Assembly (NCBI GenBank): GCA_964388235.1
Contig: CAYLXN010000001.1
Coordinates: 15,655 to 79,654, forward strand
Direction: 5' to 3'
Length of the DNA stretch: 64,000 nt
Source of the DNA: an uncultured Candidatus Saccharibacteria bacterium
GTDB lineage: Bacteria; Patescibacteriota; Saccharimonadia; Saccharimonadales; Saccharimonadaceae
In this document: positions 3,892-42,393 of the stretch, one piece after another
How the letters are laid out: every line of letters starts with the position of its first letter
How positions within the stretch are numbered: position 1 is the first letter of the stretch
The notes under the pieces: model-generated
What the model saw: the letters and a program-made list of their open reading frames with translations, nothing else
Database searches by the model: none
Told to the model about the DNA's origin: nothing
Made by a program: the position numbers and the translations under genes

Positions 3892-5910
3892 CTAGAGCGG
3901 ATGACCAGAATTAGTTAGGGCGCTATTGTAATTGTTGGCTGAAGCAATATTCATACCAGCGTTGTTTCGAGAATCACGGATTAATTGTGCTAGCTGGTTG
4001 TTGCCTCGTAAGTTTTGCTCAAGAGCTTGTCGATCAAGTCCGTTTGCAAAGGCAAAACCAGAAGTGCCAGCTATTTCAGTTGAGCTCTTTTGGCTGATAA
4101 TCCTACCGACATTATTAGCATATTGAGCGTCAGTGATGGAATTAAAGCTAGCGCCAGTTTCACGGCGAATATTAGCCATGGCTTCGAGGTCGTAGCGTCC
4201 ATTTTGTCGGGCCGATTCAATTACATTTTCATTTATTCTATCTATTTGATCAGCCGACATGCCATCTTTTTCTAATTTAGCCATTAATTCTCGATATTTT
4301 TCGCCGCCAAAATACTGGTTATCCTTGCGAGCGAAATTAACAGCGGCTGAGCCAACGCCAGCCCTGTCGGTTATTCTGCCGTCTTTGTCGATCATGCCGT
4401 TAGTTCTTAGCATAGCTAGATCCATTTCATTCATATTATTAGTGTCAATATTACGGTTATTGGTGTAGGCGTCTAGTAATTCTTGAGAGCCATTCATACT
4501 TAAGGCGCTGCTAACTTGGTCGGCGCGACTATTAAGCGTGTCTCGAGCTTCCTGAGCTTTGAGAATTGATCCAGAGAATCGTCTGGTTCTTTTGCCCAGT
4601 TTATTCATGACTTTGCCAGCTGGGTTTTTAGTTTCTAATTGGCCTAAAGTAGCTTTTGCGTTACGAACTTCGGCTTTCCTCTTTGAGATTCGGGCTGGAG
4701 CTGATCTGTCAGCTAAACTCTTAGCGCCACTAATGGCTTTATCACCCATGCTTCGCAGTTTTCCACCAATCATTGGCATGGCGGCCATTGAATTTTTAAT
4801 CAAAGTAGGCGCATAAATAATCGGTAAAACTTGAACTGCTTTAGCCATCAATAATAGTAATACACTACCTCCAGCAACAGCAGTAATTGTACTGCTAGCA
4901 AAACTTGATCCGCCAAATAAAGCCGCCACTACGGGGTAAGTCATCAGTGATGTTGACAAGAATTTTGACCAAAGCCGATAAAATGATTCGGTGTTGGGTA
5001 AGACGTTACTAACGAAAGCAATTGGCGAAATAGCGATCACGATAATTACAATGATGTCGCGAAGTGCTAGTAAAGCAATTACGACAATGATCGTCATGGC
5101 GATGCCGGCTAAAAGAACTAATCCGATAGCTAAAAGTGGCAATTTAAAAGAAGCGTAACTGGCGGCACTTACGGCGGTAGCCACACCAGCTGTTCCCACT
5201 GCAGCGCCCAATAAAATTTGACCGAAGATAGAGGTGATATCTTCGCCTTGATTTGGCGCTTGAAAAGCGGCGGCTGAGGCGGTTTTGAATAAACCATAGA
5301 GATTACTACCAATAATATTACTAATTTCAACTAAAGCAATAGTGATGTAATACGAGACATTAACCAAGAAAATAGCTACTAAAAATCTTGGTAATAAGCG
5401 CTTGGTATTATAGGCTGAGATGAAATTGCCAGTCATGTAGGAAATTAGTAAGATTAAGGCGAAAACGACAAATAGGCCATTAGCAATACCTCGAAACACT
5501 GACCAGATACTCTTCACGCCAGCGTCACTGACGAAGGCTTCGTCAATACTCATAAATGACATTGCATTTCCAGCTACGGTTTCTTCAAGTAGAGTAAATA
5601 AATAGTCGGTTGCTGAGGCCGCAGCTTCAGCGACAGGACATAAAATATTAGCGAGGATGTTATCAACTTTACAGTGTGAAAAGCCATTGTCGGTGGTCTG
5701 TGGTGGTTGTGTAGGAGTATTAGTTGTGTTATTGGTAGTGTTACTGGTTTGGGCTTGAACTGATGGGCTAAAAAATAAGCAATTTGAAAATATGACCGTC
5801 AGCAACAAACCGATGGAGAATAATTTAACTATTTTTTGCCCCGAAAACATCTTATAATGATTATGCTTGAAAAAAATAGATTTTGCAATTGTTTGTTTAA
5901 AATCCATCAA
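3892..5910 (-). CDS. VirB6/TrbL-like polytopic membrane protein, paralog 2 of 5 (672 aa, shortest ectodomain)
   Basis: It has a signal/anchor helix, a T/N-rich linker, and HCKVDNILANILCP just before the core. Core motifs are WSVFRGIANGLF, LLISYMTGN, LPRFLV, NVSYY, NIIGSN, LPNTESF and TYPVVA. The tail is about 280 aa. There is a 6-nt gap to paralog 1. Confidence 0.55.
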   Translation of the reverse strand: MMDFKQTIAKSIFFKHNHYKMFSGQKIVKLFSIGLLLTVIFSNCLFFSPSVQAQTSNTTNNTTNTPTQPPQTTDNGFSHCKVDNILANILCPVAEAAASATDYLFTLLEETVAGNAMSFMSIDEAFVSDAGVKSIWSVFRGIANGLFVVFALILLISYMTGNFISAYNTKRLLPRFLVAIFLVNVSYYITIALVEISNIIGSNLYGLFKTASAAAFQAPNQGEDITSIFGQILLGAAVGTAGVATAVSAASYASFKLPLLAIGLVLLAGIAMTIIVVIALLALRDIIVIIVIAISPIAFVSNVLPNTESFYRLWSKFLSTSLMTYPVVAALFGGSSFASSTITAVAGGSVLLLLMAKAVQVLPIIYAPTLIKNSMAAMPMIGGKLRSMGDKAISGAKSLADRSAPARISKRKAEVRNAKATLGQLETKNPAGKVMNKLGKRTRRFSGSILKAQEARDTLNSRADQVSSALSMNGSQELLDAYTNNRNIDTNNMNEMDLAMLRTNGMIDKDGRITDRAGVGSAAVNFARKDNQYFGGEKYRELMAKLEKDGMSADQIDRINENVIESARQNGRYDLEAMANIRRETGASFNSITDAQYANNVGRIISQKSSTEIAGTSGFAFANGLDRQALEQNLRGNNQLAQLIRDSRNNAGMNIASANNYNSALTNSGHPL

Positions 5911-8575
5911 TAATTCTCCTCGTGTTCATATCAAGACTGTTTTTATGAAAATCGATTGTCGATTTTAATTCGGGTGAACTGTTGTATAGCTCTCTTATAG
6001 CATCATGCCCGACGGGGTTTTCGATCGGGTCAATTGAACTGGTTTGCAGGCGAAGGTTGAAGGTATTTGGTTTGTTTTGGTCTTGAACGATTGGTTTAGT
6101 TAGGAATTCGCGTTGGAGGTTTTTCTTGTAAATTTGATCATAACGAGCCGCTTCGCTAGTGTTGGTGCGAATTGGTCGCCCCTTGCTAAAATCGCCATTG
6201 TTAAACTCTAAATTGGTTTTTATCGAGGCAATAGTATTGATATTGGTGGTGTTGTCAAGATTGTCGAGCATGTTACCGACGATAATATTCAGATCGGTAG
6301 CTGAGGCTCCTTGCTGGCTAGTCGTGGCGAGTACTAAATCAATTGTTTCGTCATCTTGAGTGGTTAATTGACGTGATTCTTTTTTGGCGGCGGCAACTAG
6401 ACCAGCTATTGTTGCTAGCTTCAGGCTAGTGTTGTCGGCGGTGTTGTGCTTGAACTGATTATAGACCGCTCGTTGATTGTCATTTAAGGTATTAATCGAT
6501 GAATCGCCAGCAGCAACTCTTGAGACTTGCTGCATGTCGTGGAAGCTGACACCTTCAGCCATTTTCTCGTAGTCTTTAGCTAGTTTTTGCTGAGCGTTGT
6601 ACGCTTGATTGGCCACACCTTTTGATACACGTCTCAAGGCGCTTTGAGCTCGACCAGTAACAGCAGCTGAAGGACTAGTTAACCAGTGGCTAAATTTATT
6701 ACCATACTCCCCTGTAACGGCTTTTTCGGCAGCTTTTTCGCGTTTTTGCTTGCGGGCGCGATGAAAGGCAGATTTTTCGTACTGTTTCTTGCCAAATCTA
6801 GACGCCATACTACTTGCCATGCCAATAAAACCACCAGCAACAGCCACTTTGCCGAGTGATTTAAAGATAACTATAGGCGTAATTAACATCGGAATAATTA
6901 ACGCTGACCACGGAATAAGAACTGAGAATACTTTCATCATATCAGCACCCGAAAGGATGTTGCCACTTAATATCGAATAGGCTAATAATCCACCACCAGA
7001 AAATAAAGCCACGGTCGGGTAAATCATTAGGCAAGCGATGAAAGCGTTAAACCACATACTGAAATATTTTTTAGTATTTGGTAAAGCATAAAGAGCAAAA
7101 GCTACTGGCGCTAAGGGTAATAAGACGATCAAAAGCGCATTACGGGCGGTTAGTAAAATCATCGTAATTGCAAAGGCAATAATCCATAATACTGCAACGA
7201 TAATTAATAATAGGATGAAAATTAACAATAAGAAAGCATCACCCCAACCGTAACTAGCTCGTAAATTACCACTGATATCAAAGTTGGCGCTGTTTGTCAC
7301 CCAGTCTGACCATTGAACTAATAAACTAAAAATCGACTCGCCGAAGATGTTTGACAAGTCAACAATTGCTTTAGCAAAGTAGGCTGAGGCATTGACTAAC
7401 AAGGCGGCAATTAGCCATTTGGGCAAAGTTTGCTTGATAGTGTAATTTGACAAACCAATACCACTTCCGATATAGTCGCCTGCTAAGTAGGAAATAAGCA
7501 TGATTATAGCTGCTACCACCAAGATTGAATTAGCGGTTACTTGGAAGATTCGCCAACTGTTAGTTAGTGCTGGTTGGTTAAAAACTGAGTCATCGTTTCT
7601 TAAAAACGGTTCGAGAATGTCGAAACTACTAGTTGATGCGTCAGCAAGTAACTCCCCTAGCCTGCAAAATAACCAGCTCATGCCACCAGCGGCGTAGCAA
7701 TATTTAACACCGTTATCAGCCTTGTCTTGGTCTAATTTGGCGCCAGCTTGACTGGCATCTAGTGCATCAAGGGCGTCTCTTAATTCTTTTTCTTTATTAA
7801 TGTAATTTTCGATCATAGTTTTGGTATCTAAATCAGGTGTAGGCCAGTTGGGTGTTAAGCCAGCGCTAATGGTGTTGCTATAGAGATGTTGTAAGATAGT
7901 CGGGCTAAGTCGACCAGCACCAAAGAGTGACTGACCGTCTTGATCAATGACCGCTAAACATTTTTCCCGGCTAAATTTAGGGTCTTTTCGATTACAAATC
8001 GCGATGATGTCGTTGGTGACTTGGTTTGAGTCAGGGGTGTTCGTTGATAAAGTCGCACCCTTGCCGTTGTCGGTACAAATTTTATTAGCTGGTTTGCCTG
8101 CAGGGTTAGATGAACCAGTGTCTCTTCCTTCAGCAATACTAGGGGTAGCAATCTCTAATGATGAATAATAAGTACAGTAAAAAACTTTTTTGTTTACTGT
8201 TTGATTATTGCCAGAGTTTTCTACAGTACCAGTTGTTTTAATTGGATTACCATCTTTGTCGTAGACATCATCCCACCTTATTGAGGCTCTACCTACACCA
8301 CCCGATCCAGATTCGGTTTTTTGATCTGGATTAAAGCTACCATTAACATTTAAGCTGACAAAAAAGTTAAGCATTCGTCGATCGTTGGCAGATAACGGAT
8401 CTTCTCCAGTCGCGGCGTTGCTGATTAATTTCATTTTTAAATACTCACTAGTGATCATGATTTCGTCATAATCAAGTATTTGGGCGTTAGCCGAAGCGCT
8501 ATTTAGTGAAAATAGTAAACTAAAAACGACAAACAGTAGAATTGGCATTTTTCTAGTTTTAAAATTAAAAATCAT
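5897..8575 (-). CDS. VirB6/TrbL-like polytopic membrane protein, paralog 3 of 5 (892 aa)
   Basis: It has a signal peptide and an ectodomain of about 290 aa. Core motifs are YCYAAGGMSWLFCR, WRIFQVTANS, MLISYLAG, LPKWLI, NASAY, NIFGES, ALPNTKKY and IYPTVA. A long tail follows. It overlaps paralog 2 by 14 nt. Confidence 0.55.
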   Translation of the reverse strand: MIFNFKTRKMPILLFVVFSLLFSLNSASANAQILDYDEIMITSEYLKMKLISNAATGEDPLSANDRRMLNFFVSLNVNGSFNPDQKTESGSGGVGRASIRWDDVYDKDGNPIKTTGTVENSGNNQTVNKKVFYCTYYSSLEIATPSIAEGRDTGSSNPAGKPANKICTDNGKGATLSTNTPDSNQVTNDIIAICNRKDPKFSREKCLAVIDQDGQSLFGAGRLSPTILQHLYSNTISAGLTPNWPTPDLDTKTMIENYINKEKELRDALDALDASQAGAKLDQDKADNGVKYCYAAGGMSWLFCRLGELLADASTSSFDILEPFLRNDDSVFNQPALTNSWRIFQVTANSILVVAAIIMLISYLAGDYIGSGIGLSNYTIKQTLPKWLIAALLVNASAYFAKAIVDLSNIFGESIFSLLVQWSDWVTNSANFDISGNLRASYGWGDAFLLLIFILLLIIVAVLWIIAFAITMILLTARNALLIVLLPLAPVAFALYALPNTKKYFSMWFNAFIACLMIYPTVALFSGGGLLAYSILSGNILSGADMMKVFSVLIPWSALIIPMLITPIVIFKSLGKVAVAGGFIGMASSMASRFGKKQYEKSAFHRARKQKREKAAEKAVTGEYGNKFSHWLTSPSAAVTGRAQSALRRVSKGVANQAYNAQQKLAKDYEKMAEGVSFHDMQQVSRVAAGDSSINTLNDNQRAVYNQFKHNTADNTSLKLATIAGLVAAAKKESRQLTTQDDETIDLVLATTSQQGASATDLNIIVGNMLDNLDNTTNINTIASIKTNLEFNNGDFSKGRPIRTNTSEAARYDQIYKKNLQREFLTKPIVQDQNKPNTFNLRLQTSSIDPIENPVGHDAIRELYNSSPELKSTIDFHKNSLDMNTRRIIDGF

Positions 8576-11500
8576 AGAACTATCCTGTCAGGTGTGATGC
8601 CGTTAGCAACAATAACTTCTCGAGTGTCATCTGGATTAAACTGGGTAATACCAAGACTAGTAAAGGCTTCATTGACTGAACCAAAAGCAGTGTTATTGCC
8701 CAAAGCTTTGGAGTAAGCATTCATGGAATCGAGAAGAGTTTGATTGATGGCGTTTTTCTCATTGTTTGTCAATAAATCGTGGCCATGAGCCGAGGCAAAA
8801 AATGGTTGCTCTTCGAGTGGCAGCAAAGTGCCGGTAACTGGGTCGACAGCTGGCGGTTGTTTAATTTCGTTTTTTATGGTCGTAAAGCTGGTACCGTTAT
8901 GGGTGTGCATGTGGTGCTGGCTTTTGTAGAGTAGTTTGGCGGCTTCCAAAATAGATTCATCTAAATTAGCGATAACGACAGGATCAAGGTGGTCATAGCT
9001 TTTCAGGACATCATAAAGATTAGTCTGTCTAATCCTTTGCGGATCTTCAGGTAAATCTCTGATCATACTTTTGACGATATCGGTTGTTGAGGTGGCGATA
9101 TCACTGCCAGACGAATATAATTCTGCGGCTAATTTTTCCTTGGCTGTTCTCAGGTCTTGCTGATTATTAGCCGCTGGTCCGCGTTGCAAATATTGATTTG
9201 AGTTGATACTCAATATGCCGAAACCTTTAGCTGCATCTTTGGCTTTGGCGTTTAATATGTTTTGATCAATTTTAATATCTTTAACCAGTAGCGGTTTGAA
9301 ATTATAACCATCATTGTCAGCTAGTGACCAATCATTATCCTGTATATTTTTCTTTTTGGCGGTGGCTTTTTTAATAACCTCCATGAAGCTATTTTCTTGA
9401 GTAATATCACCAATCGTGTTTTGATCGAAGAAAAGGATTTTTAGGTCAGGATGAGAATCGTCTGACGGGTCGATAACAAATTCTTTATCGCCGTTGGCCA
9501 ACCGTTCTTGGTTGATGTATTTGGAGATAAGAGCCATTTTTTTCTGATCAAGGTTTTGAAGAGACGCTAGGCCTTTGCGTATTTGAATCATGTTATTATT
9601 CTGAGTATTAGTTATGGCATTCACTCCTCCGTTACCAATTCCAACATTGATGGTAGTTGCGGTTAAGACATTAACTAATGAATTTACATCCATATCGTTA
9701 TAGCCAGTACTTAGTTTAGTTAAACGACTTTTTAGATCGGCCGTCGCTTGATTGATAATGCTATTTTTCTCACTATCAGTTAGTGACATGGTATTGGAGC
9801 CCGTTAGGACGTCATTTCTTATCTGTTGGATAGCTTCGTTTTCGATGGCAGAGAAATCGAGTTTGGTGTTTGAATTATTGTTGAAATTGTTAATTACCTC
9901 TCTAGAAATAACTTGATCAATATTTAAAGTCACGGTTTTATCTGGACCAACTGAGTAAGCTTGACTTGAGCCAATACTGGAGCGTATAGCTTGAACGTTT
10001 TTGGGTGGCGTGTAAGCTTCATAACCAATAATCGATTCAATGATAGCTACTTGCTGAACTTGACCATTTTTTAGCGCGGTAATACGAGCTTTTTTGAGTT
10101 CATTTTCAATTACACTCAAATCTGCGCCCTGCTCGTAAGCTTTTTTGTAGACATCAATGTAAAATTGTGGGTTGCTGACGCCATTTATAATAGCGGCATT
10201 AGCTGCCGAGAATTGGAAAATTTGAGAATTTTTGCCGTATCGAGCGGTAATAGCGTCGTAAACTGCTCGGTCTTCGGTGTTTAAGCCTTCGCTTGATCCC
10301 ATATGAATAGCTCGGATCAAAGCTGGACTGTGTTTGATCGAATCGGTGATATCATTAGCCATTTTGCTTTGAGTATAATTAACTTTGTTGGTGCTTTTGG
10401 CAACAATACCGCCAGTCAAGCGATTAAAATAGCTATTTCGGCCGAGTTTAGACATTATTCGACCAGATTTTTTTGATAAATTAGCTTTCAAGCCATCGCC
10501 AGGTACGGCTCCGTAGAGAAACTGCTTGTTTTTTAGAGATTGTTGATCTCTGATAGCTTGAGAAGCTGGTAGGTTTTTGCCAAAATTCCAACCAGCACCA
10601 GTTAATTTCTCAAAAGATTGGCTGAGTTTTGCGCCAGCTATTGGCACACCTCTCATTAATTCAATGATGATTTTCGGCACCAGTAGTATTGACAAGGCAG
10701 GTAAAGCAAAGGCTGCTAATTGAAATAAAATATTACCCGAGGCGTTAGTTAAGATTTTAGAAGTTAATTTACTGAGACTTAAAATCAAGACAGTTATTGG
10801 ATAAACACTGACGCAAGCTATAAACATTTTTAGCCATTTATTAAAGACATTGTCAAGATTTGGGATTGACATTGTGGCGATAGCGAGAGGTGCTAAAATT
10901 ACCAAGAGGATGATGGCGGCATAGCGAAATGATAATAGGAAAACGGCAAAAGTTAAGCCGATAAACACAGCTGGTAAGATTACCAATAGAAAGAATAATC
11001 CACCTAGTAAGATTACACTGCCAGCAACTGCGGCGACAGTTAAGATACTACCGGTTACGATGGCAGCTATTTTTAACTGAGGACCAGGGATGGCTTTAGT
11101 CACGCCATCAATTAACCCACCGATGTTATCACCCAAAATATCAGCCACAGTTATGATCAATCGGCTGAGATATAGAGAAATGGTTACCAATAGGACGCTA
11201 ATTAACAGCTTGGGCAGCATGATTTTGATCTGGTAATTTGATAGGCCGTTGTTGGTAATATATGAAATCAACAACACCAAGAAGCCAATGACGATAATCG
11301 AAAAGGCAATGTTGCGCACTACTCCCCAGATTGATTCGACTCTCTGATCAATAATATTTGGATTGACAGAAATTAGGCTGTCGAGTAAGCTAGATGATTT
11401 ATCGGCCGCCGAAACAGAGGTGGTGGCTAGCGGGCAGACGATCCATTTGGCAGTAATAAGATCAGTATCAAGAGCTGCACAAATATCACCGCCATTGTTG

Positions 11501-12880: not shown

Positions 12881-15580
12881 TTAATTATTTAGAAAATTAT
12901 CCAAGCCGTTTTTTAGTTCTTCAAGCTGAGCCCTAGCTGCTGGCTTGAGGGTTTTAGCCAATTCTTCGGAATTTAATACACTGTTGGCGTTGTCTAGAGT
13001 GCGCCGCATCATATCTCTTGATTCTGGTTTGGTTTTTAAGGCGGCTAAATAATCACCAACCGTTGTTGTAATGGTTTGATTGCCGTCTTTGTATTTAAAA
13101 CTATAGCTTGGGTCTTTAAAAACTGAAGCATATTTTTCCAAACCTTTTGGATCTTCTTTTGATAATCCATCAATTGACAACGACCCTTTGGACATATTGT
13201 CCAAAGCCGCTTTGACGAGTAAATCAGGATCGAATTTACCGTGAGCGATCTGCTCAGGTATGTTTCCGCCATAAACAGAAACCTTATCTGGAATACCATT
13301 AGGATACATACTAGAGCCAACTACTTCGGCCAGAACATGAGCGCTGCCGCCTTCTTTAGTGGCAGCAATAATCTTATCTACATTGGGGGCAAAGGCTATT
13401 TTCATTTGGTTAATAGCGGCTGTTTCTCTAACTAATAAATCATTAACATCAAAGGTTTTATGGGAAACCACCTTATTACCGTTGGCATCATAATCAACAT
13501 GAGAAGCGGTGATAGATCTGTTACCTAAAATTAAGTCCATCTCATCTTCACCTTTTAGGCCATAATGTTCAAACAATTTAGCCATATTTTCAACATTTTC
13601 AGAGTGTTCTTTGCGTTGAGCTGCAATGGCTTTCGATAGAACTCGGTTTTTACCAGCGGTAGTGCCTCTCTCAACACCGGCTGCATCCATCAAGAAGGTC
13701 GTTCTAGGAGCAACACCAAAACTAACTGGCACTTCCATATCCTTGGCTAGTAAGTCATTATAGGTTTGGGCTTTGACTGATTCAGCCACACTAGTGGCGC
13801 TTTCATCGAGTCTTCGCTGTAGGCTGGCTTTGGCGATTTCAACTTCCCAGTTATTATCCAAACTAGACCAATTAACTTCGAATTTCTTAGTGGCTTCATT
13901 ATAGGTAGGTTTCACCTTTCGCAAGGTTTCAGCGCGCAATTCTTGCTCTTTGCGCTCAAGGTGCTGTTTTGAAGCTTCGAGTGAATCGTTGGCGTAGGTA
14001 TTTAATAAACTAGTTTTAAAGGCACGATCGTTGACATTAGCCATGTCTTTTTTAATCTGGGCTTCTCTTATATTGCCGTAAGCTTCGGTTCGTTGAGTGC
14101 TCAGACGTTTTTGCTTGTCAGCAAATTGAGCAATCTTTTGAGTGAAGCCGCGGGCTCGATTTTCATCCGAAATATAGCGAGCCTTGGCTTCGTCCTTCTT
14201 TGAATCAGAGTAATTTTTGACTTGATTTTGGAAGCGATCCAGAAAACCTTTGGATTTATCGTTAACCAAGCCAACTAGTCGATCGCCCGCTTTGACTAAC
14301 ACAGGAGCAACAATCAGTGGCGCTACCCGAACCAATAAGCCTAAAATAACCATCGGAAAACCATCGGCTGTGTGAATAATTACATCGCCAGCTAGTTGTG
14401 AGGCGCCAAATAACAGTGAAAATAAAGGAAACACGGCTAACATATTGATAAATGTTTGGCGCCATTTATCAAATAAATCCTCAGTATTTGGTAAAAGCAT
14501 AGCTACACAAGCGATTGGGGCGATCGCCACTAAAGCTATGATGATCGCTTGTCGGGCTGCCAGGGTAATGATAGCCACAATGACCGCGATAGTGGCGCCA
14601 ACCAAGCTTGGTAATACTAAAAAGAATGATGCAACTACCCCACCCGCTGAGGCAATGGCGAAATTAATACCTGCGATAGCGGTGGCTCCAGACAAGATGG
14701 CGGCAGTGAGGTCTTTCCAATTAAGATCAGCGCTACTTTGACTGCCACTCAACGATTGAACCCGGATATTTTCAAAAAAATCATAAGTATTGTAGCCAAT
14801 GATATTAAAAACATCGATAGTTAATGAGCAGAGATAATAAGACAAATTAACCAAAGCCGCAGCTACAATTAACTTTGGTAGAAGTTTTTTGACTTCATAA
14901 ACCGAAAAGGCGTTGTTGGTCATATAAGAATAAATCAACAGTAAGCCAGCCACTACAAATAGTGAATTGGCAATGCCTCGCATGATGCCCCAAACTTTAA
15001 ACAAAACGGTATTGTTTCCAGTTGGTAATGGTTGAATTTCGACGAACTTGACCACCACATCAAATAGATAATCCATACCTTCGGCTAAGAAGTTACTAAT
15101 TGGACATACCAGCCAGCCAAGAGTTGGGATGTTGCAGGTTTTGGCATAGTCTGATTTGTTTTCATAAGGAGTTAAGTTTTGAGTATTTGAGGGGTTGGTC
15201 GGCCTACCGGTTTGTGGGTCAAGCTTGTAGGTTTGATAATTATAAGCGGTTGAATTTTTTGGATCTTGTTCATCGCTAGGAGCGATCGCTTCCATAGTGC
15301 CATTGTTTTCGTAAGACCAGTACTTTGTACCAGGAGCAAAACTCGTGCCGTCATCTCGGGCTGAAGTTTTCGGTCCAGAAAAGGTTTTGCCCTGATATTC
15401 GATCGAATCGCCCTGCCACTTAATGTCACTCGCTTCGATTGCTAAAGAATTATGATTCAGATAGAACAGATTAAATAAGGTCGCAACAAAAACAATTGCG
15501 ACTCCAATTATAAGTGACCTAATTCTAGTTGAATTAGGAAGCGGTAATTTTGCCTCCAACATACCATGCAATAATATCAT
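12881..15580 (-). CDS. VirB6/TrbL-like polytopic membrane protein, paralog 5 of 5 (899 aa), first gene of the operon
   Basis: It has an anchor helix and an ectodomain of about 130 aa. Core motifs are TCNIPTLGWLVCP, WGIMRGIANSLF, LLIYSYMTNN, LPKLIV, NLSYY, NIIGYN, LLPNTEDL and VFPLFS. The tail is about 430 aa and predicted coiled/charged. The true start may be the Met 6 codons downstream (15562). Confidence 0.55.
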   Translation of the reverse strand: MILLHGMLEAKLPLPNSTRIRSLIIGVAIVFVATLFNLFYLNHNSLAIEASDIKWQGDSIEYQGKTFSGPKTSARDDGTSFAPGTKYWSYENNGTMEAIAPSDEQDPKNSTAYNYQTYKLDPQTGRPTNPSNTQNLTPYENKSDYAKTCNIPTLGWLVCPISNFLAEGMDYLFDVVVKFVEIQPLPTGNNTVLFKVWGIMRGIANSLFVVAGLLLIYSYMTNNAFSVYEVKKLLPKLIVAAALVNLSYYLCSLTIDVFNIIGYNTYDFFENIRVQSLSGSQSSADLNWKDLTAAILSGATAIAGINFAIASAGGVVASFFLVLPSLVGATIAVIVAIITLAARQAIIIALVAIAPIACVAMLLPNTEDLFDKWRQTFINMLAVFPLFSLLFGASQLAGDVIIHTADGFPMVILGLLVRVAPLIVAPVLVKAGDRLVGLVNDKSKGFLDRFQNQVKNYSDSKKDEAKARYISDENRARGFTQKIAQFADKQKRLSTQRTEAYGNIREAQIKKDMANVNDRAFKTSLLNTYANDSLEASKQHLERKEQELRAETLRKVKPTYNEATKKFEVNWSSLDNNWEVEIAKASLQRRLDESATSVAESVKAQTYNDLLAKDMEVPVSFGVAPRTTFLMDAAGVERGTTAGKNRVLSKAIAAQRKEHSENVENMAKLFEHYGLKGEDEMDLILGNRSITASHVDYDANGNKVVSHKTFDVNDLLVRETAAINQMKIAFAPNVDKIIAATKEGGSAHVLAEVVGSSMYPNGIPDKVSVYGGNIPEQIAHGKFDPDLLVKAALDNMSKGSLSIDGLSKEDPKGLEKYASVFKDPSYSFKYKDGNQTITTTVGDYLAALKTKPESRDMMRRTLDNANSVLNSEELAKTLKPAARAQLEELKNGLDNFLNN

Positions 15581-15661
15581 CTACTAGGATAAAAGTCAAT
15601 CAATATAACCCTAATTTGCTAAAAGTAAAAGTTTATGTTTATAATTTAACAATTTAAAATC

Positions 15662-15690
15662 TTGCAAGCTGGTTAATAATTAGTTATAAT
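15662..15690 (+). promoter_or_regulatory. Sigma70-type promoter for the pilin-like array (TTGCAA-17 nt-TATAAT)
   Basis: TTGCAA at 15662-15667, a 17-nt spacer, and TATAAT at 15685-15690. The ATG at 15701 lies 10 nt downstream with no obvious SD. It sits in the 120-bp divergent intergenic region. Confidence 0.5.
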
Positions 15691-15700
15691 CAAATCAATT

Positions 15701-16219
15701 ATGAAGAAAATTTCAACAAAAAAAATAAAAAAAGCCACTAAAATATTTGTAGTCAGTGCGTTTAGTTTTGGGTTATTAATATTATCAGTAGCAAACACCT
15801 CTTCTGTGATTGCGAACAATCAATACTATCCTGGAGCTAGTGTAAATAATCCTGGTAGTTCTAGCTCATCCGGAGGAGCTCCAGGCTCAACAGGTACCGG
15901 TACTGGAAATAGCAGCAACAACAGTAGCAATAGTAATAGCGGCGGCAGCGGCTCAACTGGGATTGATCAATGTAAGGGTCGAACTGATGGTAGCGGCATT
16001 AACTGTTTAGTCGAATTAGTAGTTAATATTTTAAGTATGGCGGTTGGCGGCGTGGCGCTGCTGATGATGGTTGTGGGGGCTGTAATGTATGCTTCGGCTG
16101 GTGATGATTCTGGTCGAGTGGCGGCTGCAAAAGGAATTATTACTAAAACTGTCATCGGAGTAATCGTTTATGTCTTTTTGTACGCAATTCTCAACTTTGT
16201 TATTCCAGGTGGTATTTAG
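15701..16219 (+). CDS. T4SS pilin-like (VirB2/TrbC-type topology) protein 1, with long S/G/N-rich linker
   Basis: 172 aa with a signal peptide and a low-complexity stretch (GSSSSSGGAPGSTGTGTGNSSNNSSNSNSGGSGSTG). One Cys (C91, in QCKGR) follows the linker and a second (C102) lies in the NCLVELVV helix start. Then come two hydrophobic helices flanking an ASAGDDSGRVAAAKG loop, the same layout as the downstream paralogs. Confidence 0.55.
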   Translation: MKKISTKKIKKATKIFVVSAFSFGLLILSVANTSSVIANNQYYPGASVNNPGSSSSSGGAPGSTGTGTGNSSNNSSNSNSGGSGSTGIDQCKGRTDGSGINCLVELVVNILSMAVGGVALLMMVVGAVMYASAGDDSGRVAAAKGIITKTVIGVIVYVFLYAILNFVIPGGI

Positions 16220-16887
16220 TGATGAAACAAAAAATGAATTTAATTATATTGACGCTTATTGCTAGTCTTGGTTTTTGCTTAATAATCCCCTCCTCATCTG
16301 TATTAGCTTCGTGTAGTGGTGGTCAGAAAATCTTAACTTTTCCATTTTGGTATGACGGCGCTTTAGACGCTAATTGTAATCCTACTGGCAGTGAAAGTCA
16401 GATGGTTAATAGGATCATTCTGAACGTTGCCGATATTATTTTTCAATCGGTAGCTTATATATCAGTGGTGTTTGTGATAATTGGTGGTTTCAAATATATG
16501 ACAGCCATGGGTGATCAAGGGATGATGGCGAGCGCTAAAAAGACAATTGTCAATGCCGTGACTGGGTTGGTAATTGGGGCTTTATCATCAGCAATAATTA
16601 ATCTCGTCTTTAAGACTTTCATGGGTAGTAGTTCGTCGAGTGGTGGTTTACCAGAAGTTAATCTTGATAATACTGCTATTAAAAATGGACTCAACACTGC
16701 CTTTGGTTGGGCGGGAGTGATTTGTGTGATAGTTATTATCGGTAGTGGCTTGCTGTATGTGACCGCCGTTGGTGATCAGGCGAAAATCACTAAAGCTAAG
16801 AAAACACTCATCGGCGCAGTGATTGGTTTGATTGTGGTGATCATGAGTTTTGCAATAGTTAACTTTGTCTTAGGATCGATTGGGTAG
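16219..16887 (+). CDS. Tandem (fused) double T4SS pilin-like protein 2
   Basis: 222 aa with a signal peptide followed by two consecutive helix-loop-helix pilin modules (..VFVIIGGFKYMTAMGDQGMMASAKKTIVNAV.. and ..VIIGSGLLYVTAVGDQAKITKAKKTLIGAV..). An ATG at 16222 is the more likely start. The GTG at 16219 overlaps the upstream stop. Confidence 0.55.
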   Translation: MMKQKMNLIILTLIASLGFCLIIPSSSVLASCSGGQKILTFPFWYDGALDANCNPTGSESQMVNRIILNVADIIFQSVAYISVVFVIIGGFKYMTAMGDQGMMASAKKTIVNAVTGLVIGALSSAIINLVFKTFMGSSSSSGGLPEVNLDNTAIKNGLNTAFGWAGVICVIVIIGSGLLYVTAVGDQAKITKAKKTLIGAVIGLIVVIMSFAIVNFVLGSIG

Positions 16888-16890
16888 GTT

Positions 16891-17250
16891 ATGAAAATAA
16901 AAACATTAATCTTAGTTGTCTTTACGACTTTAACCCTAACTGGTGGCTTAATGATGCCCAGTGTTTACGCCACTAATCCCTCGTGCTCAGCTTCTGGTAA
17001 TTCTAATGTAGTTTGTCGTAACAACCCAGACCTCAATACTGTCACTAAGAATGTTCTAAAAGGATTATTTGCCATAATTGGCGCTCTGAGTGTGATCGTA
17101 ATTATTGCCAGTGGAATTATATACGCCACCTCAGCCGGAGATCAGGGTCGGATTACTATGGCTAAACAGGCTTTATTTGGGGCGGTAATCGGTTTAATAA
17201 TTTCGATCCTCGCTTACGCAATCGTCAACTTTATTGTTGATAAATTTTAA
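16891..17250 (+). CDS. T4SS pilin-like protein 3
   Basis: 119 aa with a signal peptide and a Cys pair. The pilin module reads LFAIIGALSVIVIIASGIIYATSAGDQGRITMAKQALFGAVIGLIISILAYAIVNFIV. Confidence 0.6.
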   Translation: MKIKTLILVVFTTLTLTGGLMMPSVYATNPSCSASGNSNVVCRNNPDLNTVTKNVLKGLFAIIGALSVIVIIASGIIYATSAGDQGRITMAKQALFGAVIGLIISILAYAIVNFIVDKF

Positions 17251-17318
17251 TTTTTATTAGTAATCTGAATATGCTAAAATATTTAGCAAGTTTTAACTAA
17301 AGAAAGGAATAAAACAAT

Positions 17319-17687
17319 ATGAAACAGGCGTCAAAGCGAATCATTGCTGGCGGCTTAACCTTAGGAGCTGGTCTAAGGTCTCAATCAGCGTTGGCTATTT
17401 CGGAGCTGAAAAAAGGTATAGCCGATGTTAATCCCGGAGGACCAACCGATCTTATGGGTAGTGACGGTATCTTTAAGAAAGCCGTTAACGTTCTCCTGTT
17501 CTTGATCGGTGCAGTGAGTGTGATTATGATTATCTACGGTGGCATTCGTTATGTGACTTCTGGCGGCAATCAAAACCAAGTTACCGCTGCTAAAAATACC
17601 ATTCTCTACGCTGTAGTCGGCTTGGTAATTGCGATTTTAGCTTACGCCGCAGTTAACTTTATCGTTTCTTCATTCACAACTCCATAA
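17319..17687 (+). CDS. T4SS pilin-like protein 4
   Basis: 122 aa with the module LLFLIGAVSVIMIIYGGIRYVTSGGNQNQVTAAKNTILYAVVGLVIAILAYAAVNFIV. It has its own upstream -10-like box (TGCTAAAAT) and an AAAGGA SD. Confidence 0.6.
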   Translation: MKQASKRIIAGGLTLGAGLRSQSALAISELKKGIADVNPGGPTDLMGSDGIFKKAVNVLLFLIGAVSVIMIIYGGIRYVTSGGNQNQVTAAKNTILYAVVGLVIAILAYAAVNFIVSSFTTP

Positions 17688-17758
17688 TTTGGTTTACAAA
17701 TAATAACGGTTGTGCTATAAATAATAAAGAATAATATAAATTAATAAAGGAAAAGAGT

Positions 17759-18163
17759 ATGAAACAAAATATAAAAACTTTAATCATGATGTCACTGCTG
17801 GTGCTAGGTTTTTCGGCGGCAGTAACTGGCGTGTTTAATTACGGAGCCGTTATGGCTTCATCAGGAAGTTTTACTTTGAAAGATGGTATTGATTCAGCTA
17901 AACCTGCTGAAGCTCCAGAGGATTTATTTGGTAATGCTGGTATTTTTCAGACAGTAGTTAATGTCCTGCTGTTTTTGATCGGTGCAGTTAGTGTGATTAT
18001 GATTATCTACGGTGGTATTCGTTATGTGACTTCTGGCGGCGACCAAGGGGCAATTACTTCAGCTAAAAATACAATCTTGTTTGCGGTGGTTGGCTTAATT
18101 GTAGCTATCCTGGCTTACGCAATTATTAGGTTTGTTGTCAGTTCATTCGGTATTAGTATTTAA
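17759..18163 (+). CDS. T4SS pilin-like protein 5
   Basis: 134 aa with the module LLFLIGAVSVIMIIYGGIRYVTSGGDQGAITSAKNTILFAVVGLIVAILAYAIIRFVV. It has its own -10-like box and an AAAGGAAAAG SD. Confidence 0.6.
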   Translation: MKQNIKTLIMMSLLVLGFSAAVTGVFNYGAVMASSGSFTLKDGIDSAKPAEAPEDLFGNAGIFQTVVNVLLFLIGAVSVIMIIYGGIRYVTSGGDQGAITSAKNTILFAVVGLIVAILAYAIIRFVVSSFGISI

Positions 18164-18182
18164 AGAAAATTACACTTATAGA

Positions 18183-18215
18183 ATAGCAGCCCTTAACTAG
18201 AGCTGCTATTTTTTA
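18183..18215 (+). terminator. Intrinsic terminator after the pilin array
   Basis: Hairpin ATAGCAGC (18183-18190) / GCTGCTAT (18202-18209) followed by a T-run. Confidence 0.6.
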
Positions 18216-18231
18216 TTTGTTAAATTATTAT

Positions 18232-18267
18232 AATAAAAATAGACTAATGATAATTCACTAGTCTATT
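18232..18267 (-). terminator. Intrinsic terminator after hsp20-family gene
   Basis: 9-bp stem AATAGACTA (18238-18246) / TAGTCTATT (18259-18267). A T-run follows on the minus strand. Confidence 0.45.
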
Positions 18268-18284: not shown

Positions 18285-18788
18285 TTATAGGTCAGACACG
18301 ACAGGTATCTTAACTGGAATTTGTTGTTGAATCTTCTCAAAGCTGATAGTCAATACTCCATCCTTGAGTACTGCCTCGACTTCATCTTCCTTGACAGGAA
18401 TTGGTAAGGCTAAGGTCCGGGTGAACTCTCCCCAGTAGCACTCCATAATGTGATAAGCCGAAACATCTTCTTCGTCACCGCTCGATAAAGTACCACTAAT
18501 GGTCAGAATCCCTTCTGAGATGCTGACATCAAGTTCTTTTTTATCAACCCCAGCTGTTCTAGCTTTGATTATTAGCTTTTCTGGTGTTTCGAAAACGTCA
18601 ACCGCTAGCTGTCCAGGAAAATCTTCTTCATCTTCCCAGGTTGTCTCTTCTTGGTCTTCTGGTTCGGGTGTGGTGTCTTCTTGAGGTTCGGTTTCTGTTG
18701 GTTCGTCGACTAACTCGCTATCGTCGCCCAAGAATCCCGACACTAAGTCGTCATCTATTAAAAGGTCATTTTCGTTTTTTTGAGCCAT
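18285..18788 (-). CDS. Hsp20/alpha-crystallin family small heat-shock protein with acidic N-terminal extension
   Basis: The alpha-crystallin domain is recognisable (DVFETPEKLIIKARTAGVDKKELDVSISEGILTISG...GEFTRTLALPIPVKEDEVEAVLKDGVLTISFEK). A GGAGGAG SD lies upstream. Confidence 0.8.
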   Translation of the reverse strand: MAQKNENDLLIDDDLVSGFLGDDSELVDEPTETEPQEDTTPEPEDQEETTWEDEEDFPGQLAVDVFETPEKLIIKARTAGVDKKELDVSISEGILTISGTLSSGDEEDVSAYHIMECYWGEFTRTLALPIPVKEDEVEAVLKDGVLTISFEKIQQQIPVKIPVVSDL

Positions 18789-18904: not shown

Positions 18905-19606
18905 ATGTTTGATAAAGCCCTCAGTCTACTAGCCCCTCACCACTGTAAAAGCTGCCAAAAAATAGGCAAAAGTTTATGTGATAGTTGTAAAAATAACATC
19001 AAAGATCAACATCCAGCTAGAATAGAAAAGTGTATTATTTGTCAAAAAACCAGCTCGGCTGGGCTTTGCTGGCATCGAGGGTTTAATTTTAATCAAGTTT
19101 ATTACCTTAATTATCGACAGGGGATTTTAAAGGATCTAATTAATAGTTATAAATTTGATTTACAGCGTGATCTAGCGACACCACTAGCGGAAATTATGGC
19201 GCCGATTCTGCCTGATCAGCAAGGACTTTGTTTGGTACCGATGCCAACGATCAAGACACATCAGCGCCAACGCGGCTTTGATCATATGGAATTATTAGCC
19301 AAGCAAATTGCCAAGCTTAAAAATTACCACTACTGCCCTGTCCTGCGTCGGCAGACTAATCAATCACAACAGGGCTTGTCTCGATCTGAGCGACTACAAA
19401 ACGCTAAAGCGGCTTTTAGTTGTCAGCAAACACTTGACTCAGAGGCGGAATATTTATTACTAGATGATATTTGGACGACGGGTGCTAGTTGTCGCTATGC
19501 GGCCAATGCTTTATTGCAAGCTGGAGCTAAAAAAGTATCAGTGGCAATTTTCTTAAGACAGCCAATGACTAAATCTGGCAAAAAGCCACAAATAATGGTA
19601 GAATAA
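18905..19606 (+). CDS. comFC: ComF-family phosphoribosyltransferase-like protein (ComFC)
   Basis: It has an N-terminal CxxC...CxxC zinc-ribbon-like motif and a C-terminal PRTase signature LLLDDIWTTGAS. Confidence 0.7.
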   Translation: MFDKALSLLAPHHCKSCQKIGKSLCDSCKNNIKDQHPARIEKCIICQKTSSAGLCWHRGFNFNQVYYLNYRQGILKDLINSYKFDLQRDLATPLAEIMAPILPDQQGLCLVPMPTIKTHQRQRGFDHMELLAKQIAKLKNYHYCPVLRRQTNQSQQGLSRSERLQNAKAAFSCQQTLDSEAEYLLLDDIWTTGASCRYAANALLQAGAKKVSVAIFLRQPMTKSGKKPQIMVE

Positions 19607-42303: not shown

Positions 42304-42393
42304 TGGCGGAGAGAAGGGGATTCGAACCCCTGATACGGTTGCCCGCATACACGCTTTCCAAGCGTGCTCCTTCAGCCACTCGGACATCTCTCC
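42304..42393 (-). tRNA. tRNA-Ser (anticodon GGA), CCA encoded
   Basis: The reverse complement folds with acceptor GGAGAGA/TCTCTCC, anticodon loop TTGGAAA, a long variable arm and GGTTCGAATCC. Confidence 0.85.

Follow-up and report, generated by a model that had tools for sequence, protein, structure and literature searches.

What does a bacterium build from a tandem series of small, signal-peptide-bearing proteins encoded beside its type IV secretion system (T4SS) genes, and why are about six types of them kept? We took up this question with a 64,000-nucleotide (nt) stretch of contig CAYLXN010000001.1 from an uncultured Candidatus Saccharibacteria bacterium, which was analysed at its full length and is called the window below. 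Saccharibacteria live attached to host bacteria. Between positions 15701 and 18163 on the + strand, the window carries five adjacent small open reading frames (ORFs), g1 to g5, in which the ORF listing and a profile search together recognised six hairpin modules. These five genes are probably a VirB2-like pilin array of the chromosomal, monoderm-type T4SS (similar to mating-pair formation class FATA, MPF-FATA) of a Saccharibacteria epibiont. We establish the membership of the five proteins in the Pfam family PF18895, their anatomy, their adjacency to VirB6-like genes, and the synteny and positional orthology of the array across Saccharibacteria. The locus does not by itself decide the question posed at the outset. 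The genes and modules of the array are as follows:

15701-16219, + strand: g1, 172 amino acids (aa); position-1 pilin-like protein; PF18895 28.2 bits
16222-16887, + strand: g2, 221 aa from ATG 16222 (222 aa from the alternative GTG 16219); two-module fusion; PF18895 54.4 bits over two stretches; NF045849 44.8 bits
16312-16626, + strand: g2 module 2a, residues 40-135
16627-16884, + strand: g2 module 2b, residues 136-222
16891-17250, + strand: g3, 119 aa; single-module pilin-like protein with a Cys pair in the mature N-terminus; PF18895 38.6 bits
17319-17687, + strand: g4, 122 aa; terminal-type pilin-like protein without Cys; PF18895 37.3 bits
17759-18163, + strand: g5, 134 aa; terminal-type pilin-like protein, closest paralog of g4; PF18895 30.3 bits

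An earlier, sequence-only reading of this stretch had described five consecutive small ORFs that each encode a signal peptide and a helix-loop-helix. The ORFs lie where it had placed them, and the hairpins are recovered by both hydropathy and AlphaFold2 (AF2); a single module per gene holds for g1, g3, g4 and g5, whereas g2 encodes two. By hydropathy, each N-terminus is K-rich and continues into a hydrophobic h-region and a small-x-small site (VIA/N, VLA/S, VYA/T, ALA/I and VMA/S in g1 to g5, with predicted cleavage at the slash), the -1 Ala of which is invariant in an alignment of 38 sequences. Past the signal peptide, all five proteins consist of two hydrophobic helices with a short polar loop between them. 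In the AF2 models of g3 and g2, the signal helix leads into a linker that is disordered and of low confidence, and the two-helix hairpin behind it reaches a predicted local distance difference test (pLDDT) score of 80-88; the hairpin spans H48-80/H85-118 in g3, and two hairpins stand in tandem in g2 (H58-94/H99-134 and H151-181/H186-220).

The genes differ in what surrounds this core. In g1, the signal peptide is followed by a long S/G/N low-complexity linker, as the sequence-only reading had noted, then by a Cys pair, the hairpin and a C-terminal NFVIPGG. The g2 protein also has a signal peptide and a Cys pair, and its modules 2a and 2b are joined by a GSSSSSGG linker. On an identical Logan contig (L034), a separate, independent gene call placed the g2 start at ATG 16222, and the in-frame fusion is present in that independent assembly as well. 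The closest paralogs are g4 and g5, as had been proposed, with 67% identity in the mature part and 78% in the hairpin core; the remaining pairs share 24-56%. The loop and end motifs proposed earlier proved to be approximate: AK[KNQ] and the closing NF[IV] occur in most modules, with departures in g1 (AKG), g2a (NLV) and g5 (RFV), and the loop motif [ST][SA]GG[DN]Q or AGD[DQ] reads MGDQ in g2a and VGDQ in g2b. The residues that are truly invariant across modules are Y, A-K, V, G and A. Genes g1, g2 and g3 are tightly packed, with gaps of -1 to 3 nt (g3 starts 3 nt past the g2 stop); only g4 and g5 are preceded by spacers, which are AT-rich and measure 68 nt (g3-g4) and 71 nt (g4-g5). Rfam and tRNA scans gave no match within the array.

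All five proteins exceed the gathering score of PF18895 (T4SS_pilin, 26.6 bits), and precomputed matches on identical proteins agree; because every member of the array passes this score, its profile signal lies far beyond chance. NF045849, which describes the Mbov_0395 pilin-like proteins of Mycoplasma integrative and conjugative elements (ICEs) and has a cut-off of 40 bits, is exceeded by g2 only as the sum of its two modules; g3 (27.8 bits), g4 (27.5 bits) and g5 (22.4 bits) fall below the cut-off, and g1 gives no match. When 1.84 billion proteins were searched with a profile made from the six modules, 67,564 cluster representatives matched at E<=1e-3. Close matches of the profile numbered 7,671, and all 120 of those listed carry PF18895, many of them PF04956 (TrbC/VirB2) as well. 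A single-sequence word-index search with g3 returned three matches, and tblastn of g5 against 72,556 plasmids gave marginal, unannotated matches (E 7e-4 to 6e-3), which provide no evidence for a plasmid-borne relative. The proposal that these are T4SS pilins thus agrees with the profile scores of all five proteins and with the AF2 hairpins; neither of the two outcomes named beforehand as counting against it (no profile match to such a family, and predicted structures incompatible with a helical hairpin) was found.

The genomic setting points the same way. GroEL places the window in Candidatus Saccharibacteria, with 95% identity to the metagenome-assembled genome (MAG) CAZPHO01 and 62-74% to other Saccharibacteria/Saccharimonadales MAGs, and the remainder of the window encodes ordinary chromosomal housekeeping functions (aminoacyl-tRNA synthetases, PolA, DnaG, sigma-70, a Mur ligase and tRNAs). 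Upstream of g1, at a distance of 120 nt and in the divergent direction, lies the first of five VirB6-like (TrbL-type) genes:

12881-15580, - strand: VirB6-like gene a, 899 aa
8572-12813, - strand: VirB6-like paralog, 1413 aa
5897-8575, - strand: VirB6-like paralog, 892 aa
3892-5910, - strand: VirB6-like paralog, 672 aa
793-3885, - strand: VirB6-like paralog, 1030 aa

The divergent VirB6-like operon of the sequence-only reading is thereby recovered as gene a and four further genes, all mutual paralogs whose polytopic cores align over 277-442 residues at 26-32% identity (BLASTP E 1e-25 to 1e-40). Matches of these proteins to PF04610 (TrbL/VirB6) are sub-threshold only, and precomputed PF19590 (TrbL_3) matches are available on identical or orthologous proteins. 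A further ORF of this operon (MNRDDDQDKNQ..., - strand, 1-~735) runs off the left edge of the window; it encodes one transmembrane segment followed by a hydrophilic domain, and the partial ORF has no Pfam match.

We compared the locus across five genomes, namely the window and the loci L036 (from a sister species), L037, L039 and L040. The order of VirB6-like gene, pilin array, Hsp20 gene and ComF-like gene is kept in all five, and in each a strong terminator closes the array, after which come an Hsp20 gene in convergent orientation and a gene for a ComF/GntX-like phosphoribosyltransferase, which in the window are located as follows:

18285-18788, - strand: Hsp20
18905-19606, + strand: ComF/GntX-like phosphoribosyltransferase

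The expansion of VirB6-like genes is common to the window, L036 and L037. L039 and L040 are more distant, and only one VirB6-like gene lies opposite their syntenic array; genes for PrgI, a TraC-like protein and VirB4 come next, and the gene after these encodes an M23 peptidase in L040 and is unannotated (1014 aa) in L039. The L036 ortholog of VirB6a (4260-7274) contains a run of N (X in the translation) near its 3' end, which is an assembly gap and makes its stated length of 1004 aa unreliable.

The modules were extracted with a hidden Markov model and compared in an identity matrix, by which the array positions are conserved orthologs across the genomes. Positions 1 to 3 of the window share 72, 84 and 69% identity with their L036 counterparts, against 35, 40 and 51% with the best paralog inside the window, and the position-1 gene ends in NF[LIV]IPG in all five genomes, an ending that the remaining 27 modules do not have. 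A signal peptide is missing from position 3 in every case; L036, L037 and L040 encode this position as an ORF of its own (93-101 aa), the window has it joined to position 2 (g2), and L039 has it joined to position 4. In L036, the counterparts of the two g2 modules are accordingly separate ORFs, at 7870-8286 (138 aa) and 8295-8600 (101 aa, no signal peptide). The terminal type is the best conserved and has been duplicated lineage by lineage, with two copies here (g4 and g5) and four in L036; the copy-number variation for which comparative genomics had been suggested as a check is thus present. The L036 paralogs.6 and.7 have identical hairpin cores and are only 69% identical overall because their signal peptides and mature N-terminal segments differ. 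Between the window and L036, identity is 51-69% for the pilins, 56% for VirB6a, 62-70% for several neighbouring genes, 89% for Hsp20 and 95% for GroEL.

The organisation of putative expression signals separates g4 and g5 from the genes before them. The relevant sites are:

15581-15700: AT-rich control region from which VirB6-like gene a and g1 diverge
15662-15690, + strand: promoter-like site TTGCAA-17-TATAAT, a consensus match only
15599-15571, - strand: promoter-like site TTGACT-17-TATTAT, a consensus match only
17272-17280, + strand: extended -10-like box TGCTAAAAT upstream of g4
17303-17309, + strand: Shine-Dalgarno (SD) sequence AAAGGAA upstream of g4
17713-17722, + strand: extended -10-like box TGCTATAAAT upstream of g5
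17746-17752, + strand: SD sequence AAAGGAA upstream of g5
18180-18216, + strand: intrinsic-terminator-like hairpin with T-run that closes the array, dG -17.9

No SD sequence is evident before g1. The separate -10-like box and SD sequence that the sequence-only reading had seen before both g4 and g5 are indeed there, as TGCTA(A/T)AA(A)T and AAAGGAA in each case. Window-wide, TGCTA[AT]AA(A)T occurs in 22 copies, 13 of them intergenic although intergenic DNA makes up 8% of the window, and ten copies stand 14-66 nt upstream of an ORF start on the same strand, those of g4 and g5 included. One of these starts belongs to a small ORF that immediately precedes groEL, at the place of the Cpn10/groES gene in L036. 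Examples of the motif lie at 17272, 17713, 25456(-), 30589(-), 36191(-), 39514(-), 40096, 40587, 44062(-) and 59031. The motif is also kept in the L036 spacers ahead of the equivalent pilin genes. TGCTAWAAT is therefore likely to behave as an extended -10 promoter element of this organism, and separate promoters for g4 and g5, and with them the independent expression suggested earlier, are plausible but unproven. One copy lies just upstream of the tRNA-Ser gene at 42304-42393, and in the g4-g5 spacer (17720-17749) a 10-nt unit, AATAATAAAG, occurs three times between the -10-like box and the SD sequence.

Strong hairpins equivalent to the one that closes the array follow the last pilin gene in L036, L037, L039 and L040. 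In L036, each of the two most recent pilin copies stands behind a near-identical cassette of terminator hairpin, TGCTATAAAT box and SD sequence (9887-10000 and 10412-10527); the unit of duplication would therefore be a complete transcription unit, so that recent pilin duplications in the sister species carry their own promoter and terminator. In the window, a 28-nt AT-rich inverted repeat brackets the array (15632-15659 and 18210-18237, 82% complementary); it is not obviously conserved in L036 and is likely a chance product of AT-rich spacers.

Taken together, we propose with reasonable confidence that the array encodes VirB2-like subunits, inserted through Sec and assembled by a monoderm-type T4SS into an envelope-spanning or extracellular structure directed towards the host, with specialised subunit types and one amplified bulk type. 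The precursors would be inserted via Sec, and signal peptidase I would cleave them behind the conserved Ala, leaving a membrane hairpin with both ends outside and the loop, Y-x-[ST]-x-x-G-[DN]-[DQ]...A-K, inside; the Cys pairs in the N-terminal segments of g1 to g3 fit such an extracytoplasmic location. A machine of VirB4, PrgI and VirB6, encoded beside the array in relatives, would then draw the subunits from this membrane pool and build a filament or conduit, spanning the envelope or lying outside the cell, towards the host bacterium. The six modules would be non-redundant subunit types. Positions 1 to 3 (g1, g2a and g2b), and probably g3, may be specialised subunits of low copy number that share one transcript and are translated in a coupled manner. 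The terminal type (g4 and g5) may be the bulk subunit, with its own promoter and strong SD sequence, amplified lineage by lineage, and with a nearly invariant hairpin that would carry a fast-changing, exposed N-terminal segment, possibly a sign that this segment has diversified functionally. With both ends outside, fusing one module to the next would be topologically neutral.

Several observations weigh against this interpretation. The sequence-only reading had called the genes VirB2/TrbC-type. The layout and PF18895 agree with that name, whereas none of the five window proteins matches PF04956 at E<=0.1, so that a direct link to canonical VirB2/TrbC is not demonstrated. Comparison by hhalign with seven authentic MPF class T (MPF-T) VirB2/TrbC proteins, taken from conjugative plasmids, gave a probability of 8% (E 0.004), too weak to count, in an alignment that places the signal-peptide site and helix 1 in register; against VirB2 of A. 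tumefaciens by itself the family reached 0.2%. When the AF2 models of g3 and g2 were searched against the PDB with Foldseek, neither VirB2 nor TraA was among the top 50 matches listed, which were generic helical hairpins and bundles only (best E 0.3-0.6; 300 matches at E<=10). The simple hairpin fold is too plain for Foldseek to discriminate. A search of PDB sequences with the family profile likewise gave one match at chance level (E 1.1). Neither VirB4, PrgI nor a coupling protein was detected within the 64-kb window, the cleavage sites were assigned by eye, and the division into major and minor subunits is drawn from gene organisation only. The name of PF18895, moreover, was given by inference, and we know of no T4SS pilus that has been observed in any Patescibacterium. 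Weak, sub-threshold PF04956 matches (E<=1) are given by 21 of the 38 relatives, with a best value of 8.3e-6. That the subunits work like VirB2 follows from layout, Pfam family assignment and genomic association, not from demonstrated homology or an observed pilus.

In an alternative reading, the proteins are membrane-embedded T4SS channel subunits that line or cap the VirB6 translocon and form no extracellular pilus. To our knowledge, monoderm and wall-less conjugation systems have no pili, and among monoderm T4SSs pilins appear to occur in the systems of this group only. The T4SSs of Patescibacteria are MPF-FATA-like, a class reported to lack pili (Quinonero-Coronel 2025; PMC12102498). A channel would also suit the tight genomic coupling to VirB6-like genes, of which there are five here, and the NF045849 score of g2, above the cut-off of a Mycoplasma ICE protein that g3 to g5 do not reach; natural fusions of 2 to 17 modules would be awkward units for a helical homopolymer. 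The layout nevertheless fits VirB2-type pilins, which are themselves membrane-resident before they polymerise, and more than half of the relatives examined (21/38) show the sub-threshold PF04956 matches (best 8e-6). A walled cell, furthermore, needs some structure that spans the wall, and variable N-terminal segments on an invariant core suggest an exposed surface. We consider a channel with no pilus to be unlikely.

The fusions are also central to an elaboration of the pilin array proposal, in which the six modules would be ordered, non-interchangeable parts of one heteromeric T4SS filament or conduit in a monoderm. Here divergent VirB2 paralogs would take the tip or base roles that belong to VirB5 in other systems, natural fusions would mark assembly neighbours, and the expansion of VirB6 and of the terminal pilin, with its variable and exposed N-termini, would be convergent with that of the Rickettsiales and serve to engage different host surfaces. 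The fusions that would have to be read in this way join positions 2+3 here, positions 3+4 in L039 and in a widespread class of 166-172 aa, and up to 17 modules elsewhere. As a whole, we regard this model as quite unlikely. The class of 166-172 aa (P0004-P0016; L039 10001-10519) has two modules and no signal peptide and represents positions 3+4, unlike the 2+3 fusion of the window. Examples of "poly-pilin" proteins, with many tandem modules similar to PF18895/PF04956, are P0144 (1775 aa, 17 modules), P0160 (1147 aa, 11 modules) and P0124 (820 aa, eight modules). P0144 is encoded at locus L047 (8001-13328) on a contig that is probably archaeal because it also encodes ribosomal protein L39e.

A third explanation is that the copies are redundant pilins, kept chiefly for antigenic or phase-variable switching in which a single paralog is expressed at any time; such a role has been proposed for the VirB2 paralogs of Anaplasma and Bartonella, and the sequence-only reading had raised antigenic or functional switching for g4 and g5. 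Each of these two genes stands behind a promoter-like box of its own, close relatives differ in their number of terminal-type genes (two here, four in L036), and N-terminal segments diverge fast. There is also a conversion-like tract: 66 nt of helix 1 in g4 (17502-17567, + strand) and g5 (17975-18040, + strand) differ by two mismatches, and the flanking DNA is 57-77% identical in overlapping 30-nt windows, with synonymous changes in most conserved codons, a pattern that probably reflects recent gene conversion between the two genes. The array was searched for switch elements, however, and showed no invertible segment or promoter, no homopolymeric tract and no tandem repeat in coding DNA. Positions 1 to 3 are conserved orthologs though GroEL in the genomes compared is only about 63-74% identical to that of the window, g1 to g3 would be co-expressed because they are translationally coupled, and the whole pilin series is essential in Southlakia (Wang 2023; PMC10633639). 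Switching thus finds no support in this array, and we judge it highly improbable as the main reason for the multiplicity. Small, soluble, Sec-secreted effector or toxin subunits exported by the T4SS, as in the ptx/ptl arrangement, would match the signal peptides, small size and T4SS-adjacent position (PMC7427843), but this can be dismissed almost entirely, since the two hydrophobic helices of about 30-37 residues in each mature module (AF2) mark integral membrane proteins and not soluble cargo, and the PF18895 matches also speak against it.

Arrays of the kind that we interpret as a pilin array have been described before. McLean 2020 reported from Saccharibacteria a "Sec-secreted array" that encodes 4-6 small proteins with signal peptides next to VirB4/VirB6, and compared it to ptx/ptl (PMC7427843). 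Wang 2023 annotated the array proteins by structure as pilin subunits and, by transposon sequencing of Southlakia epibionticum, the sole member tested genetically, identified the T4SS cluster together with its pilins as essential (PMC10633639). With PF18895 and PF04956, Quinonero-Coronel 2025 recovered 441 arrays (2-11 genes each) from 383 assemblies, especially of Saccharimonadia, with a mean within-array identity of 25% and a maximum of 54%, and had already drawn the analogy to Bartonella and Anaplasma (PMC12102498). A 2025 review describes six structurally conserved, sequence-divergent VirB2-like pilins as a possible conduit to the host (PMC12857230). As far as these four publications were searched, they make no mention of fused modules or positional orthology, and we found no mention of poly-pilin fusions in the study of Patescibacteria T4SSs (PMC12102498). 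Tandem pilin genes in a Patescibacteria genome, by which published arrays are defined, are present here as five genes with six modules. Our additions (five-genome synteny, positional orthology, the TGCTAWAAT boxes and the conversion tract) are modest.

The canonical VirB2/TrbC proteins of MPF-T systems (A. tumefaciens, PF04956) resemble those of the window in size (about 100-130 aa) and layout: the signal peptide is cleaved at an Ala-rich site, the mature N-terminus is short, and a short polar loop connects the two hydrophobic helices of the hairpin. They differ in that the window proteins have no significant sequence or profile match to them, belong to a monoderm host, comprise six types instead of one, and have no reported VirB5, VirB7, VirB9 or VirB10 partners. 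Mbov_0395 (NF045849) belongs to the broad MPF-FATA world, and the modules cover its 80-residue hairpin profile from one end to the other; unlike the window array, this family sits on a mobile element and functions in conjugation. The parallel to Anaplasmataceae and Rickettsiales that the sequence-only reading had drawn holds to the extent that both gene types are multiplied: the rvh T4SS, too, belongs to obligate symbionts with reduced genomes and has several copies of both pilin-like and extended VirB6-like genes (PMC2653234, PMC3556328), and the five VirB6-like genes here resemble, by analogy, the five rvhB6 genes of Rickettsia. That system, however, is a diderm MPF-T machine of an unrelated lineage. 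An affiliation of the window with Rickettsiales, or of its locus with the rvh type, was rejected, as the host is a member of the Saccharibacteria, relatives of which carry monoderm-type PrgI, TraC-like and VirB4 proteins; the resemblance would be convergent at best.

The closest comparison is with the arrays of Southlakia ML1 (SEML1_0006-0019) and Nanosynbacter lyticus TM7x. In the window, two modules are fused in g2, there are five VirB6 paralogs instead of one, and VirB4 and PrgI do not lie within the 64 kb, all unlike these two arrays; the g4/g5 identity of 67% (78% in the core) also differs from the within-array maximum of 54% in published arrays. In other respects the loci are alike. They come from the same phylum and share PF18895, tandem multiplicity and sequence-divergent paralogs; the array adjoins VirB6-like T4SS genes, with a ComF/GntX-like gene nearby; and six pilins there (PMC12857230, PMC7427843) compare with six modules here. 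The locus can thus serve as a comparative case, with six conserved positions, one natural fusion and the pairing of a pilin array with five VirB6-like genes.

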